Positions 24,001 to 30,000 of a DNA stretch of 64,000 bases are shown here, in pieces. Numbering within the stretch: the stretch's first letter is position 1; each line of letters starts with the position of its first letter. A program made the position numbers. The stretch is from Thermodesulfobacteriota bacterium (GTDB taxonomy: Bacteria; Desulfobacterota_D; UBA1144; Nemesobacterales; Mycalebacteriaceae): the NCBI GenBank assembly GCA_965198945.1, contig CBDAQI010000010.1, forward strand, positions 64,001-128,000. Reading direction: 5' to 3'.

Positions 24001-27000
24001 CATGGGGACAGGTTTGCGGAGAAGGATGACAGAAGAATAAACCGCATAATTGACGCCCTTCAACTAAGTCTCTCAGACGGCGAGTCTGTGAGGCGTTTTA
24101 TAAAAACGAAACTTCTTTACCAAAAAAACGCCGGAAGCGTGGAAGATGAATTGAAAACGGTTTTTCAATATCTGTCAGAGCAGTATAAGCGCAATGGCGG
24201 TCCGGATGATTTTTCTGAAATTAGACTTTACAACATAAGGCATGATTGGACGGATGTTCCGCCGCTGTCGGCCGAGACGGAAAAAATTCTGATCTATTCA
24301 ACAAAAACCGGAATGGGAGAGAAATGGAGCAAATAGCGGGAAAATTAAAAGACCGTTTTTTCGGTTTTTTCTTTGCCGAATCGGAAGCTTCGGCGCTTGG
24401 GGTTTGCAGGTTTTTATTCTGCGGATTTATTTTTGTTTATTACCTCGGCGCAAATTTTGCAGACTGGGGTCTGGTTCCCGATGAGCTCTGGCATCCGATT
24501 TTTCTGTTTGATATTTTCAACCTGCCGGTTTTTTCCCCGGCTGTCCTCAAGGTTCTGGGACTGGTCTGGCTTGCCTGTGTTTTTTTGAGCGCGGTCGGAT
24601 TTTTCTCCCGTCCAGCCACATTTCTGTCATTTGTCATTGGTTTCTATCTCATCGGAATGACCAACAGTTTTTCCAAAACCCATCACATGGAAACCATCGT
24701 GCTTTTTGTTTTCGCAATTCTGGCTTTTTCCCGTTGCGGAGACGGTTTTTCGGTGGACCGGCTGATAAAATCTCGTCGCGGCGAGCGCATTTCTCCTTCG
24801 TGGGAATACGGGTGGCCCGTCAAATTAATTCAGGTGCTTATGATTTTCTTTTTCTGCGCCGCGGGACTTTCAAAATTGAGAAATTCTGGGCTTGAATGGG
24901 TTTTTTCAGAAAACTTGTCCGGCCTTTTTATTTCCGGACTGCTTGGAAATCAGAGGCACGAGCCGCTTTTTGACTGGCTCACTTTGATGCTTGCGCAGAA
25001 ACATATCTCAATTTTTCTTGCAGGAATCACCTTACTTCTTGAACTGTTGGCACCGCTCGCATTTTTTGGACGACGTTTGAAAGTTGTTATCGGCATGGGG
25101 CTGTTTTTTATGATGGCGGGTTTCTGGGTGGTGATGGGGCTTGCTTTTCCGCAGTGGATTGCGGCTTTTGTATTCTGGTTGCCGTGGGATGAGGTGGTTC
25201 GCAGAACGAATATCAGGAGCGGATAAATTAAAAACGGAACAGTTTTTCTTCTTTGTATTGCGCTGGTTTTTGCGGGTTTTCCTCTACTGTCCGCGGAAGC
25301 GGTTGATAATGGCAGGGCGCTGCCGGAATTCACATCAAAAAACCCGCAGGACTGGATTAACTCAAAGCCGCTGAAAAAATCAGATCTTAAGGGCGGGGTA
25401 ACTCTCATATATTTCTGGGCTTTTGACTGCTGGAATTCATACCGTTCTTTCCCGTGGCTGCGCGGAATTGAAAAGCGTTTCGCGGACAGGCGGTTTAAGG
25501 TGGTCGGCATACACACGCCTGAGTTTGAGCGCGAAAAAAGCAGAAAAAATCTTGAGGCGAAAGTGAAAGAGTTCAAACTTGCTCATCCAGTTATGATGGA
25601 CAATAATTTCAGATACTGGCGAAAAATGAACAACCGCTACTGGCCCGCTTTTTATCTCGTGGACGGAGAGGGCGATGTCGTCTATAAAATGATAGGGGAA
25701 ACGCACAAAGGACAGAAAAAAGCGGAAGAGTTTGAAAGGGCTTTGGAGGGTTTGGTTAACCAGTGAATCTGGTAGACTTTTCTTGAAAAAAATTATATCG
25801 TGGGCTTGAATGTATGAACAGAATTGAAAGTACATTAAGAAAGGAAGTTAAGAAGGTTCTTGTTGGTCAGGGGTATAGGATTAGCAAAGGGCAGTTTTGC
25901 TTTGACACAGATAATATAGAAAAAAAGCGATATTTGCATCAATTTTCCCGGGCGGAAAGAATTAGAGAAAATTTTGATTTTATAAGATCATTTTTGCCTG
26001 AAGCCAGAAAACATCTTCTTGATAGTTCAAGTTTAGAAGTCTCAAAAATTCAACCCAGATTATTAGAAATAAAGTCAGGAACAAGAGAAGGAAGTTTATT
26101 CCGTTGGTGGAACCTTGTTTGGTGGAGCCTCCCATATGAAAAATCATATGGAAGACAGATGAGGTTTATTGTATGGGATGAATATCACGACGCTCCGATT
26201 GGTCTGATAGGTTTACAAAGTCCTCTTCTTTCTTGGAGTGTTAGAGACAAATACCTTTCAATAGGAGTCAAACAAAGAGATTACTGGGTAAATCAATCTC
26301 TTTCTGCTCAAAGATTGGGTTCACTTCCTCCTTACAATGGGTTTTTAGGTGGAAAACTGGTTGCTTCACTGATGACGTCGGATTTGGTTAGGGAATCTTT
26401 TAATAAAAAATATAATGAAAGTCAAACATTGCTTTTGAGAAGGAGATTGCCGGCAAATCTGCTTTTTATAACTACTACGGGTGCATATGGGAAGAGCAGT
26501 GTTTACAATCGGCTCAAGTTTAATGAGGAAAAAATCTGTGATTTTATCGGCTACACAAGAGGAAGTGGTTCATTTCATATATCTAATACTCTTTACGAAA
26601 GTTTTGTCAGTTATCTGAGAGACCAGGGCTATAAGGCAGGAAGGTCTTTTGGGAACGGTCCTTCTGTTAAAATGAGAAATATAAGGAAAGCAATGAACTT
26701 GTTAGGTTTCAAAAACGGCTGTGAGCATGGAATGAAAAGAGCTGTATACCTTTTTCCATTTGTTTCAAATTTGAAACCTGTAATACAGAAAGAGCAAAAG
26801 CCTGTTTGGTATCAAAGAAGTATAGAAGATTTGACAAACTACTGGAAAGAAAGGTGGGCTTGTAAAAGAGTCGACAATCATGAGAAAAGTTTTTTTTCCG
26901 GTGAAGATTATATTGATGAATTGTTAAAAGATTTGGCAAATTGCGAGAAACTTGCGAGTAAGAATATTTAGTTATGGACAAAAAACCTTACGCATATTTG

Positions 27001-30000
27001 CCAGAAGATCTTTTGTTGCAAATGCTTGAAAAAGCGCCTCAAACTGCAAAACAATTGGCAAATGCAATTGAAGTCAATGAATCTCAAGTAGAAAAAGCAA
27101 GGAGTTTATTAAAAGATAAAGACTTTATTATATCTTGTTCTGGAGGCGATGTTACAGAATCAATTATGGCTACTGATGGTGCCAATATTATTGAACATAA
27201 GGCAAGTGCTGACATTGTTTTGGCAATTGCAGTTGGAGTAGATGGTCTTTCAAAAGAATCTTCAACTCATTGGCCTGAAGGCTCGCGACAGTATCAGCAA
27301 TGGCAAGATGCGTTACCTCACCACGTTGCTAATTCAAGATTGGCACAAGGTGTGATGTTCCTTATGGAATTAAGCATTCTGGCTGAGACAGACAGAAAAA
27401 TCAGAATAATGGATGGTTCTCATATAACTGCTATTCTCAAGCTCAATAGTTTGTTAAGTGCTAATGATGAAGATAGAGCTGATAAGCCATACGTGAAAGC
27501 CCTCTCAAGATTCCTGTCTGAAAACTATGACAAAGTCATTCCCGATATACCGGATATTATCGCTTCTGCTTTTTCCGACAAATCTATAATAAGTCTTACC
27601 AAATATTCTTCTTCAAGGGAGATTATAGACTCTCAATTGCAAACACTTGAAATAGTTGCCGATGACAAGGTTTTTATGTCTACGCTTCTTGAGGAAAATG
27701 AGTATACAAAACCTGTTTCTGTGGGACAATCAGCAAAAGATAAAAAAATGTGGGAAGATTTTCATATAAAGTGCAATTTGCCAGTTGACGGAGTAAATAA
27801 TTCGGAACTTGAAAATCGTCTTGAAGATGCAATTGCTCCATTCAAAATTACGGAAGATCACGAATCGAATTTGTTTTTTTGTTATTATAAACCTTTGAAA
27901 CATACTATGGCTCATCGAGTTGAATTAAAGAAGAGTCTTGCGGAAAGTAAAAAAGATCTTGAGTTTTTTCTTAGAAGTTTGAAAAAACAAATAATCTTTC
28001 CAGAAATACGAGAGCCATACCCACAGTTTTTAGCAGATATTATTGCCAAAAATATTTATTTTGGAATGGAAGCGGTTAATCAGGCTATTTTCAATAATAA
28101 ACTGCTACATAGCCAGAAAAATTTTGATTTTGTTCTTCCATATAGGACAAGTTAAGTAGTAAGTATTGTGCCTGTGCCCGAATCTATTATTGACTTACTG
28201 AATTCTGATCAGAAACCCCTTGGAGCAGTCGGTTCTCCAAGTGACACTTTTGAAGCAACTGTTGATGTTCTTGAGGTTAGCGAGAAGGAAAAACTTTTGG
28301 GTGAATTGGCTTGTTTTTGTGTAAAAGAAGGCAGTGGTGATGTGTTTGTACTGGGTCAAATAACTGAAATTACAACAGAAAACAGATGGCACCAATAGCC
28401 ATCCTTTAAAGGTATTATAAAAAGACATGGCAATCTTCCCAATTTAAGTGGTGTAGCAGATAATCGTATCGCTAGGATAAATGTCCAATCCAGTTTTATG
28501 CTGACAAGTAATCAATCAGAAGCAGAAGCACATAAATTAGCAAATTCTCCTTCAACGGGTGTGCCTGTGAAAAGAGTAAGTAATGAGATCATGCAAAAAC
28601 TCGTGAGGCAATATGAAGAACTTGTTTCTCTTGGAAACTCTTACGATACCGATGTCAGTGTGCCATTTTGGTTCAAACACTTTGGCAAGCCAACTGAAGG
28701 GGGAGATGGTGATGCATATCATATTGGAGTTTTTGGCCGTACGGGTTCTGGAAAAACTACAACAGCTGCTAACATGATTTTAGGTTATGCTCGCAATAGT
28801 TCTCATATGAATATTTTGATTCTTGATCCGCAAGAGCAGTTTTACGAAGACAATAATGTGTTGCCAAACGAAGTGAGTTTTAAAGAGCAAATATTAAAAA
28901 CTGGAATGACTTATGAAAAATATAGAGTTCCTGAAGAAGTTGCATTGCCTGATGATGCAAAACTCTTTAGTGAACTTCTATTGAATTATAATTTTATCAA
29001 AATTGCTTTCGATATTTTAACTGAGCAAAAACTTGAAGAAATGAGAGAAGCTATAGAGAGATATGTTAGCATTCGTATAGATAACGGAAGATTAAAAATC
29101 TCTACGAATCCTGAAAAATTATACGAGGATTTGCTTAATTATTTTCTTAATGAGAATGAAAATAAAGAAAGAGAACCCTTGAAGCAGGTCTATAGTACAA
29201 AACCCAAAATAAATGAGATTAAAGAAAATATAAGAAATACAATCTCTTCTAATAAAGGAAAGGAAATCTGGAAAGTGATATGCAGTCTTTTTTCAGAATC
29301 CGGGAAAAAACCTCTCAGAGAGATAGTAAATGAAGTTGTTAGGCAAAATAATTCTCAAAATGGAGAAAATGGCAAGACAATTGTTTTAAACATTTCTGCG
29401 AGAGGGGCTCAAAGGGGAATGGATGATTTGCATGCATTGTATGTAAAAATCATTGAAGATTCTATTAAAGAAAAGGGAGCGAAACTTTATGCAGATGGGA
29501 AAAAAGCAAATTGTCTCGTTGTATTGGACGAAGCTCATCGCTTTATAAATACGTACAATTATGATCAACAAATCAAAGAATTGACTGCCAGCATTATTGA
29601 TGCCGTTCGCACAACCAGAAAGTATGGAATTGGCTATATGTTTATTACTCAAACTATTGAATCACTTCACAGGGAAATTAGAGATCAAATTAGAATATTT
29701 GCTTTTGGTTATGGTCTTACAAGTGGTACAGAATTCGCGCAAATTAAGAATATAATCAACGACGAATCAGGAGCAAAGTTTTATCGTTCTTTTATAGATC
29801 CATCAAGTAATAAAAAGTTTCCGTTCATGTTTTATGGACCTATTTCTCCTCTTTCATTTACAGGTGCGCCTCTTTTCTTAGAAATGAATGGCCAAATTAT
29901 TGATTTTCCATAAATTTTTCCTGCATGTCATGTTATTGTCCAGTTTTCTCAATTGCACCTTTTGATTTTCTCCATCTTTTGTTTATAGTCCTTAAATCTC

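Follow-up and report, generated by a model that had tools for sequence, protein, structure and literature searches.

In archaea, NurA and HerA make up a DNA repair machine, and there is an archaeal mre11-rad50-herA-nurA operon; ATPases of the HerA/FtsK type also power conjugative DNA transfer. TdpABC is a phosphorothioate (PT) system, reportedly published by An et al. in Nat Chem Biol in 2025. An excerpt of PMC12914056 presents tdpABC as a three-gene unit in which one gene makes the DNA mark; an extract of PMC10853773 describes DUF4338 as a GNAT domain fused to DndF; and a section of PMC13219725 describes Mom as a GNAT that moves glycine from Gly-tRNA to adenine in double-stranded DNA, with an HTH-like insertion being required. 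DruA heads the canonical Druantia I operons found on plasmids, where druA genes adjoin giant DEAD/DEAH helicases, and in G070 the DruD model matches a neighbor of DruA (E 4.5e-113).

The window (the whole 64,000-nt stretch of DNA analyzed here) carries three ORFs on the forward strand at 25814–29913: druA, a nurA-like gene, and a herA split by one stop. As the initial annotation had it, this is a compact same-strand cassette. The gaps are 2 nt between DruA and NurA and 12 nt between NurA and HerA. Tentatively, at somewhat less than an even chance, we read it as one copy, gained by horizontal transfer, of a three-gene module that is widespread and most likely directed against foreign DNA; this copy is now probably dead. 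The module is most likely an undescribed DNA-degrading defense system, inactivated here; a literature search found no paper describing a DruA-NurA-HerA cassette.

Like Druantia type I, the cassette has a full-length DruA as its first gene, but beside it stand a NurA nuclease and a ring ATPase of the HerA type rather than a YprA-family helicase. It resembles the NurA-HerA end-resection complexes of Sulfolobus, Pyrococcus, Thermococcus, and Deinococcus in its NurA fold (2ygk, Z 14.4; 9x1m, Z 13.5; 7f6d, Z 8.5), its HerA family, and its adjacent, often overlapping genes. It differs from them in its linkage to druA, its patchy, horizontally spread distribution, an extra N-terminal helical domain on NurA, and the rarity of mre11/rad50-type genes nearby (just 2 of 51 loci). 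With TdpABC, as described by its PDB entries and in PMC12914056, the cassette shares a compact three-gene plan of HerA-like ATPase, nuclease, and one further enzyme, which here is a GNAT-fold DruA and not the PT-synthesizing TdpC. SIR2-HerA, DUF4297-HerA, and the MAD7-MAD8 pair of MADS likewise combine a HerA-type ATPase with an effector; here, however, the effector is NurA, and druA is present as a third gene. DndFGH/SspFGH with the DUF4338-DndF fusion, in the extract of PMC10853773, also places a DruA-type GNAT domain on an ATP-driven DNA-restriction machine, whereas the cassette encodes DruA as a protein of its own and has NurA-HerA, not DndFGH, as the machine.

Druantia type I was considered and rejected for this locus, since DruA is present but a DruE-type domain and DruD were not found in the window genome (G000). 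PF09369 (DruE-type) had no match there, against matches in 8 of 14 control genomes; the DruD model also had none, in a search without a positive control. The earlier view that this is not Druantia I–III agrees with the lack of a detected MZB/DUF1998 (DruE-type) domain or DruD in this 95%-complete genome. PADLOC found no match in the four ORFs upstream of the cassette. No DruB, DruC, DruD, or DruE accompanies this DruA, the models searched by name in the genome being those for DruD and the DruE-type domain.

The insert and its interrupted herA

The cassette lies in a 4.4-kb low-GC insert (25758–30177, no strand), delimited by GC composition and by blastn against congeners, with GC of 0.32–0.39 compared to about 0.45–0.53 in the flanks. 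It contains no gene besides the three, and its neighbors are housekeeping genes. In congener G001, which lacks the cassette, blastn places just 87 bp at the same position, between the left-flank gene and purU. Two of six genomes in the genus, G000 and G003, have the cassette, at the same site, and the NurA gene is present in two of 41 related genomes. Comparison with G003 gives dN/dS values of 0.10, 0.16, and 0.16 for the cassette genes, indicating purifying selection while they were intact, and the cassette has been held at one chromosomal site since the two genomes diverged.

Such lasting vertical inheritance, with purifying selection, in a genome of only 1.39 Mb and among housekeeping genes, would suit a rather unlikely alternative, that of a module for DNA repair or end resection. 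In that case NurA-HerA would resect double-strand breaks, as it does in archaea, Deinococcus, and Thermus, with DruA as an accessory regulator, for example acetylating a repair factor. The very patchy distribution (2/41 related genomes) and the low-GC insert argue against it. No flanking repeats, tRNA, integrase, or transposase were found at the insert, which, together with the constancy of the site since the G000/G003 split, makes it very improbable that the module serves a mobile element's own DNA processing, transfer, or maintenance rather than host defense.

Apart from a single TAG, herA is one frame, as previously claimed. The 5′ fragment (28168–28398, + strand) runs for 76 codons from a GTG start to the TAG, codon 77 (28396–28398, + strand), where G003 has GAA (Glu) in an intact 575-aa ORF. 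The remainder (28399–29913, + strand) encodes the HerA/FtsK P-loop ATPase core, with the next in-frame ATG at 28498. Logan contigs from three public runs, covering two samples and one study, are identical over the TAG region (0 differences), although these runs may be the source of the assembly. The nonsense codon is reproducible in these contigs, and this copy of the cassette is probably inactive: the stop would cut the N-terminal barrel of HerA off its ATPase core, so the NurA-HerA machine is probably not assembled. The druA and nurA reading frames remain intact.

Predicted folds of the three proteins

The first gene (25814–26971, + strand) encodes a DruA/DUF4338 protein of 385 aa, matching PF14236 (E 1.2e-59) and, over positions 13–374 of 407, the PADLOC DruA model PDLC00002; NCBIfam has no model for it. 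Our PADLOC runs returned the values already on record: E 7.7e-88 for DruA, no match for the second protein, and for the third mad8 (E 4e-19) with weak HerA models. The AF2 model of DruA (pLDDT 86.4) is that of a GNAT fold, with a predicted core at about residues 78–335 and a large insertion within it at about 223–309. All 50 VIA matches listed are GNAT-type folds (Z 8.3–10.1), and Foldseek gives GNAT probabilities of 0.84–0.97, yet every E-value is at least 0.014. Eight residues are invariant (G169, P173, Y174, K181, T221, S228, Y231, and R233), and in the model they cluster at β4-α3 and β5-α4, the usual GNAT cofactor and catalytic positions. The canonical GNAT motif, Q/RxxGxG/A, is not evident on reading the DruA sequence.

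The best VIA neighbor of the model is Mom of phage Mu (8bv8; Z 10.1, rmsd 3.8, 169 of 202 residues), and the RNA cytidine acetyltransferases NAT10 and TmcA are among the top Foldseek matches. These results, with the placing of the invariant residues, bring up an alternative that we think improbable, namely restriction-modification logic with a new chemistry. A Mom-like DruA, as an acyl- or aminoacyl-transferase, would mark host DNA and NurA-HerA would degrade unmarked DNA, in parallel to TdpC plus TdpAB. The large insertion in the DruA core may be compared to the HTH-like insertion of Mom in the section of PMC13219725, and the three-gene layout is that of tdpABC in the excerpt of PMC12914056. 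In the sampled loci, each of the four broken druA genes is accompanied by a broken herA or nurA, which fits as well. However, ordinary GNATs score about as well as Mom (next Z 9.4), the Foldseek E-values are poor, and no match between DruA and Mom came out of a profile-sequence comparison. Mom, as described in that section of PMC13219725, likewise has a helical element inserted into its GNAT core, but it is a 231-aa protein of phage counter-defense, while DruA has extra N- and C-terminal parts. About as improbable is a general form of the idea, in which DruA would be a Mom-type nucleic-acid acyl- or aminoacyl-transferase that labels host DNA covalently as “self,” and NurA-HerA, DruB–E (Druantia I), and DndFGH-like machines would be interchangeable devices for recognizing and destroying DNA without the label. 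If true, DruA systems would be a new, acyl-based class of restriction-modification, and the function of the lead gene of Druantia type I would be explained.

The second gene (26974–28155, + strand) encodes a 393-aa protein beginning with a three-helix, winged-helix-like domain. It has no Pfam match of its own and no PADLOC 2.0 model, but PF09376 (NurA) matches 12 of 15 close homologs that are 51–82% identical to it; the number of homologs reported before, 321, was obtained again, with PF09376 in 69 of the 120 listed. Its model, of moderate quality (pLDDT 65.8), matches Sulfolobus solfataricus NurA (2ygk) with a Foldseek E of 1.2e-5, and eight NurA entries have VIA Z scores of 8.5–14.4, with the next fold at only 4.7. 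All 32 sequences compared share residues D68, E132, D147, H150, and D355. D68 aligns with the motif I Asp of Pyrococcus furiosus NurA; D68, E132, D147, and H150 are putative catalytic-type residues. The core segment 69–122 is poorly modeled. Sequence similarity to solved NurA proteins is near zero (best profile E 0.11). TdpB is absent among the fold matches listed. The NurA fold, together with the HerA family, is equally what the repair alternative would expect.

The remainder of HerA matches the DUF87/HerA central domain (E 1.1e-9) and has Walker A (GRTGSGKTT) and Walker B (VVLDEAH) motifs, whose GSGKT and DEAH portions are the same in all 32 sequences compared. The family profile matches seven solved HerA-type ATPase sequences (E 6e-10 to 5e-4), led by 8wiv (6e-10), 9c1m (5e-9), TdpA (2e-8), and S. 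solfataricus HerA (4d2i, 3e-8). As a single sequence, the window HerA has TdpA (8wet) as its best PDB match (E 6e-4), but by profile TdpA is no nearer than 8wiv or 9c1m. The NCBIfam models for “anti-phage-associated HerA” match weakly, as do TraC, VirB4, and TrwB; the latter three would suit a role in mobile elements.

Linkage and gene neighborhoods in other genomes

The initial annotation's count of 29 loci with a complete set, 28 of them ordered DruA>NurA>HerA, was obtained again among our first 35 loci (43–75% identity); a wider NurA alignment raises the total from its 36 loci to 65. All three genes are present in 54 of these, 41 as DruA>NurA>HerA, 10 as NurA>HerA>DruA, and three with druA convergent. 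The DruA-NurA gap is within ±11 nt in 30 of 38, identities to the window proteins co-vary between loci (r 0.80–0.98), and the linkage holds through all three orders and down to 30% identity, far beyond chance. Hosts include Proteobacteria, Bdellovibrionales, Patescibacteria, Omnitrophota, Ignavibacteriales, Firmicutes, Planctomycetota, Chloroflexota, Actinomycetota, Cyanobacteria, Eremiobacterota, and Rhodothermales. With the low-GC insert and the empty site in a congener, this bears out the earlier description of a conserved, horizontally spread unit. The proposal that DruA partners NurA-HerA in place of DruB–E also agrees with this linkage, the plasmid DruA genes being beside giant helicases instead. 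No phage record with the NurA gene was found, and plasmids gave three distant matches only.

Gene neighborhoods were compared for 51 loci. In 16 of them a gene for a restriction enzyme or DNA methylase is no more than three ORFs away, and some restriction-modification (R-M), toxin-antitoxin, Abi, or mobility gene is nearby in 35, both counts being without a background control; the R-M and recombinase neighbors noted previously are thus frequent. In six loci from three phyla a type IIG REase-MTase (PADLOC E 6.5e-200) directly follows herA, and in two a IIG enzyme and a PLD-SNF2 helicase adjoin druA. Such a conventional adenine methylase, coupled to the cassette in six to eight loci, makes a second marking enzyme less necessary and so tells against DNA marking by DruA. 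The operon-like association with IIG enzymes, the other R-M, toxin-antitoxin, and recombinase neighbors, and the spread across phyla also weigh against repair, as does the fact that the sole other documented homes of DruA are defense systems. For repair, on the other hand, are the 13 of 51 loci that, like the window, have only housekeeping or unknown neighbors, and two (L036 and L037) in which SbcD-like and SbcC/SMC-like genes right after herA recall the archaeal mre11-rad50-herA-nurA operon. Another cassette, in the bacterial order of the window's host, has an Mrr nuclease on one side and an integrase on the other.

Recombinases or transposases beside many cassettes could point to mobile elements, as could the many copies of DruA-like domains with transposases: an IS66-family-coupled ORF (17 matches in G026), a domain fused to a DDE_Tnp_1 transposase (five matches in G052), and ORFs of 755–769 aa in G022, G072, and G012. 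However, these IS-linked domains have neither the insertion nor the PPY...GGKL motif that mark the DruA of the cassette and of Druantia, and so form a different subfamily; the window DruA shares architecture, insertion, and motif with a DruA that adjoins DruD.

The defense role that we prefer for the cassette is inferred from the DruA family, gene neighborhoods, patchy distribution, and frequent decay. HerA, judging from its family, would be a ring ATPase pumping double-stranded DNA, and a NurA dimer seated on it would cut the strands in passage, judging from the fold match and from the known structures of NurA-HerA complexes of archaea and Deinococcus. DruA might be a discriminating or licensing subunit that controls at what time, or against which DNA, the machine acts; such a role is suggested by its obligatory linkage and its recurrence beside other translocase-nuclease modules.

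Broken copies occur elsewhere too. The ATPase had been thought to be a single ORF in all 28 other loci, but it is broken in seven of the 54 three-gene loci, and of the 56 loci with a detected HerA, 46 have an intact gene. In all, eight of the 54 have some broken gene, which is a further point against repair. Decay of this kind is typical of defense genes.

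Genes and chromosomal setting of the cassette

The cassette consists of three closely packed genes, druA, nurA and herA, on the + strand of the window (25814-29913). The first, druA (25814-26971), encodes a full-length DruA of 385 aa (Pfam PF14236, E 1.2e-59; PADLOC DruA PDLC00002, E 7.7e-88), which matched no NCBIfam model. The third, herA (28168-29913), encodes a HerA/FtsK-type P-loop ATPase (DUF87, E 1.1e-9; PADLOC mad8, 4e-19, and weak HerA models). Its family profile matches seven solved HerA-type ATPase sequences about equally, for example 8wiv (6e-10), 9c1m (5e-9), TdpA 8wet (2e-8) and S. 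solfataricus HerA (3e-8). ORFs were called by a simple longest-ORF rule, and some starts are over-extended.

The gene between them (26974-28155, 393 aa) was identified as nurA-like by fold comparison. As a single sequence the protein has no match in Pfam, PADLOC or NCBIfam, and sequence searches of the PDB with it and its profiles gave nothing significant; fold comparison alone identified it. The AlphaFold model is of moderate confidence (pLDDT 65.8) and fits solved NurA structures, with no other fold fitting well. Foldseek places NurA within the top 10 (S. solfataricus NurA, 2ygk, E 1.2e-5); in VIA, 2ygk reaches Z 14.4 and eight NurA entries fall at Z 8.5-14.4, the next match being at 4.7. 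There are 321 homologues, some carrying the NCBI name NurA; PF09376 (NurA) is found on 69 among the 120 matches listed, and is matched by 12 of 15 aligned homologues (51-82% identical).

GC content is 0.32-0.39 across 25.5-30 kb, vs. about 0.45-0.53 on either side. A promoter and terminator scan of this AT-rich stretch was uninformative (22 promoter-like sites, with 15.1 +/- 4.2 expected). The flanking genes are housekeeping ones, with oxaloacetate decarboxylase subunits and a DCC1-like oxidoreductase upstream and purU, aroE, ribF and trkH downstream. Between the left-flank gene and purU there are 87 bp in the cassette-free congener G001, and 4.4 kb in the window. A second congener, G003, has the cassette at the same site, with 77-79% nucleotide identity; since this is similar to the identity of the flanks (75-80%), the insert is older than the split between G003 and the genome of the window (G000). 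When 41 related genomes were searched with the NurA protein, it was present in G000 and G003 only, that is, in one of five other genomes of the genus and in none of 35 from other genera of the order. No integrase or transposase was found among the flanking genes and no direct or inverted repeats flank the insert, nor is it marked by a tRNA, the only one in the window being at 59322.

Two features beside the cassette were also seen. Directly upstream, about 1.8 kb (about 23532-25320) without a blastn match at this site in five congeners is a second, unexplained insert, holding two + strand ORFs (23746-24336 and 24246-25226) for which Pfam and PADLOC gave nothing. Downstream, purU (30139-30982, - strand; ACT and formyltransferase domains) is divided between two overlapping frames beside an A7 run, either by a homopolymer assembly slip or by a real frameshift; in G003, purU is absent from the cassette site.

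Linkage, spread and gene neighborhoods

Loci were gathered with a NurA alignment from one-genome-per-species contigs. All three genes are present (tblastn) in 54 of the 65 loci obtained, over which identity ranges from 75% down to 30%. The order is DruA>NurA>HerA in 41, NurA>HerA>DruA in 10 (cyanobacteria), and NurA>HerA with druA convergent in three. Among the other 11, contig ends cut L006, L013, L034, L035, L047, L063 and L065; L032, L033 and L052 are degraded fragments; and L061 has no HerA match. Spacing is tight, with the DruA-NurA gap within +/-11 nt in 30 of 38 cases and the NurA-HerA gap between -4 and +31 nt in 42 of 50. Identities to the window proteins co-vary over the 54 loci (r 0.86, 0.80 and 0.98), a descriptive measure, as related loci are not independent.

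Among the hosts are Gamma-, Alpha- and Betaproteobacteria, Bdellovibrionales, Patescibacteria, Omnitrophota, Ignavibacteriales, Eubacteriaceae, Brocadiales, Rhodothermales, Chloroflexota, Actinomycetota, Eremiobacterota and many cyanobacteria. A PF14236 search across 120 genomes belonging to the window's class yielded further, more divergent units: in G075, DruA-NurA-HerA is flanked by an Mrr nuclease and a tyrosine integrase, and in G014 a 383-aa protein is followed by HerA and then DruA.

Neighboring genes were surveyed at 51 loci, taking up to three ORFs of at least 110 aa per side (282 ORFs, of which 266 were scanned and the 16 outermost left out). As descriptive counts, made without a background control, a DNA methylase or restriction gene is found at 16 of the 51 loci, a restriction-modification, toxin-antitoxin, Abi-type or mobility gene at 35 (with three more ambiguous), and housekeeping or unknown neighbors alone at 13. 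That the module instead serves a mobile element in handling its own DNA seems very improbable. The NurA protein had no match in 50,697 phage records.

The restriction genes include several placed as if part of the unit. In L040, L048, L057, L062 and L064 a type IIG restriction-methylase of 1,000-1,090 aa begins on the herA stop or no more than a few bases from it, and in L049 one begins 166 nt after it; the two that were scanned, from L040 and L062, match PADLOC PDLC03630 with E 6.5e-200 and 2.6e-207. These loci are from Actinomycetota, Chloroflexota and Eremiobacterota, and the cassette with its IIG enzyme is effectively a four-gene unit in this distant clade. In L020 and L021, both from Patescibacteria, a IIG enzyme ends right where druA begins, preceded in L021 by a PLD-SNF2 helicase resembling DrmD.

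A different pair of genes directly follows herA in L036 (12990-17755) and L037 (13541-17859), encoding an SbcD/Mre11-like phosphoesterase and an SbcC/Rad50-like SMC ATPase. The resulting DruA-NurA-HerA-SbcD-SbcC array recalls the archaeal repair operon. These two loci speak against a defense role and for a repair module; we think a repair module unlikely. Bacterial NurA-HerA complexes act mainly in immune defense according to a 2026 review, which does not mention DruA (PMC13748450).

A nonsense codon in herA and decay of the cassette

The herA frame of the window is broken by one TAG (28396-28398, codon 77), which leaves residues 1-76 cut off from the ATPase core; codon 111 is the next ATG in frame. 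In G003, herA is a single 575-aa ORF with GAA at the equivalent codon. Positions 27900-28900 of the window are letter-for-letter the same as Logan contigs (assemblies of public sequencing runs) of three runs from two samples of one study, which lends the TAG weak independent support because the runs may be the source data of the G000 assembly. No RNA run is among those listed for this stretch. The change is a substitution with no homopolymer slip, and for this reason, together with its sameness in the three run assemblies, it is read as a real, recent nonsense mutation. A sequencing error was set aside on the same grounds, bearing in mind the single and possibly source study; recoding was also rejected, no sign of an alternative genetic code having been seen.

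Between G000 and G003, dN/dS is 0.10 for druA, 0.16 for nurA, 0.16 for herA and 0.075 for the flanking oadB; herA as a whole has been under purifying selection since the two genomes diverged. Because of the nonsense codon the cassette is probably inactive in G000. This genome is small and eroding, and its copy is probably a recent pseudogene; for G000 itself the finding is modest. The break fits the decay pattern of other loci: a stop, frameshift or deletion damages eight of the 54 three-gene loci, affecting herA in seven, druA in four and nurA in one, although assembly errors in MAGs may account for some of them. In the cyanobacterial L038 (11151-12785) and L039, a deletion has joined or truncated herA and druA; one 544-aa ORF of L038 matches the N-terminal half of HerA and the C-terminal part of DruA.

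The DruA fold and possible roles of the module

The DruA model is confident (pLDDT 86.4), and its core (residues about 78-335) is predicted to have a GNAT fold. This agrees with a statement in PMC10853773, where DUF4338 is described as a GNAT domain found fused to DndF. All 50 VIA matches listed are GNAT-type folds (Z 8.3-10.1), headed by phage Mu Mom (8bv8; Z 10.1, rmsd 3.8 over 169 residues), which by VIA's own rule ties with the rows that follow, at Z 9.4. Foldseek has NAT10, SpeG, TmcA and Mom among its best rows, with no E-value better than 0.014. A large insertion (about residues 223-309) lies inside the core, and the invariant residues G169, P173, Y174 and K181 after beta4 and T221, S228, Y231 and R233 after beta5 would, in the model, occupy GNAT cofactor-binding and catalytic positions. 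Comparison of DruA with the PDB by sequence gave chance matches only, an Atlas search without PF14236 gave only a lead at 0.82 to a "phage GNAT-like" cluster, and hhalign of the DruA profile against the Mu Mom sequence gave nothing (probability 0.2). The likeness to Mom is suggestive only, a matter of modeled structure. Recent work showed Mom to be a tRNA-dependent aminoacyltransferase whose target is adenine in dsDNA, and which has an HTH-like insertion that is essential (PMC13219725).

The cassette does not fit known systems. The MZB/DUF1998 domain of the large helicase DruE was not found in G000 (95% complete; control positive in 8 of 14 genomes), and neither was DruD, in a search without a positive control. 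As these DruE and DruD features were not found, filing the cassette under Druantia was rejected, which bears out the claim of the initial annotation that it is distinct from Druantia I-III. The phosphorothioate system TdpABC was rejected because the gene that accompanies the nuclease and the ATPase, druA, encodes a GNAT protein and not an enzyme that forms phosphorothioate, and because TdpA stands no nearer than the other HerAs do; TdpB is not among the Foldseek or VIA matches listed for the NurA-like model, although its absence there does not show that the two differ. SIR2-HerA, DUF4297-HerA and MADS were rejected since the nuclease matches no PADLOC model. A literature search that included full-text look-ups in defense-discovery papers but no bioRxiv supplements, with defense catalogues covered up to PADLOC-DB 2.0, found no paper joining DruA/DUF4338 with NurA/HerA.

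NurA-HerA is a well-understood two-protein DNA shredder. Here three families are obligatorily linked, have spread horizontally, are under purifying selection and frequently decay. Judging from the known families, a HerA hexamer would move dsDNA into a NurA dimer, which would cut it; the context suggests foreign DNA as the target, with DruA perhaps providing discrimination or licensing. We tentatively favor such a defense machine, with DruA as its sensor or licensing subunit, at somewhat less than even confidence. A bolder variant has DruA marking self DNA, combining a Tdp-like logic with Mom-like chemistry; the structural nearness to Mu Mom raises this testable possibility, in which acyl-type DNA marking would be used by the host in the arms race, but we regard it as distinctly improbable. 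If the module does restrict phage or plasmids, it would add a defense family found over a dozen phyla, including Patescibacteria and cyanobacteria, and would show that bacteria have put NurA-HerA to use in immunity together with a GNAT-fold partner. For DruA, the signature gene of Druantia type I, our literature search found no assigned biochemical function; its obligatory coupling to NurA-HerA offers a far simpler system, of three genes and about 4 kb, for asking what it does.

Plasmid homologues of DruA (28-33% identical) belong to canonical Druantia I operons that include a giant DEAD/DEAH helicase, and a DruA beside DruD in G070, another genome of the class, has the same insertion and motifs as the cassette DruAs. 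The latter are 28-32% identical across clades and equally far from this Druantia DruA. The G070 locus (L108, G070:C1:59000-78999) has the Druantia-like DruA, a 958-aa protein and DruD (PADLOC 4.5e-113) within an F-type conjugative transfer region (TraG, TraF, TraN), with no large helicase gene right after DruD; a conjugative element may here carry Druantia I in partial or variant form. In one genus of the same order, each genome holds many copies of partial, DruA-like PF14236 domains, without the insertion and PPY...GGKL motif of cassette and Druantia DruAs. G026 (L111) has 17 PF14236 matches, with a 296-aa ORF coupled to an IS66-family transposase; G052 (L112) has five, fused to the N-terminus of a DDE_Tnp_1 transposase; and G022 (L110), G072 and G012 have DruA-like ORFs of 755-769 aa. 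This transposase-linked subfamily may bear on what the fold binds.
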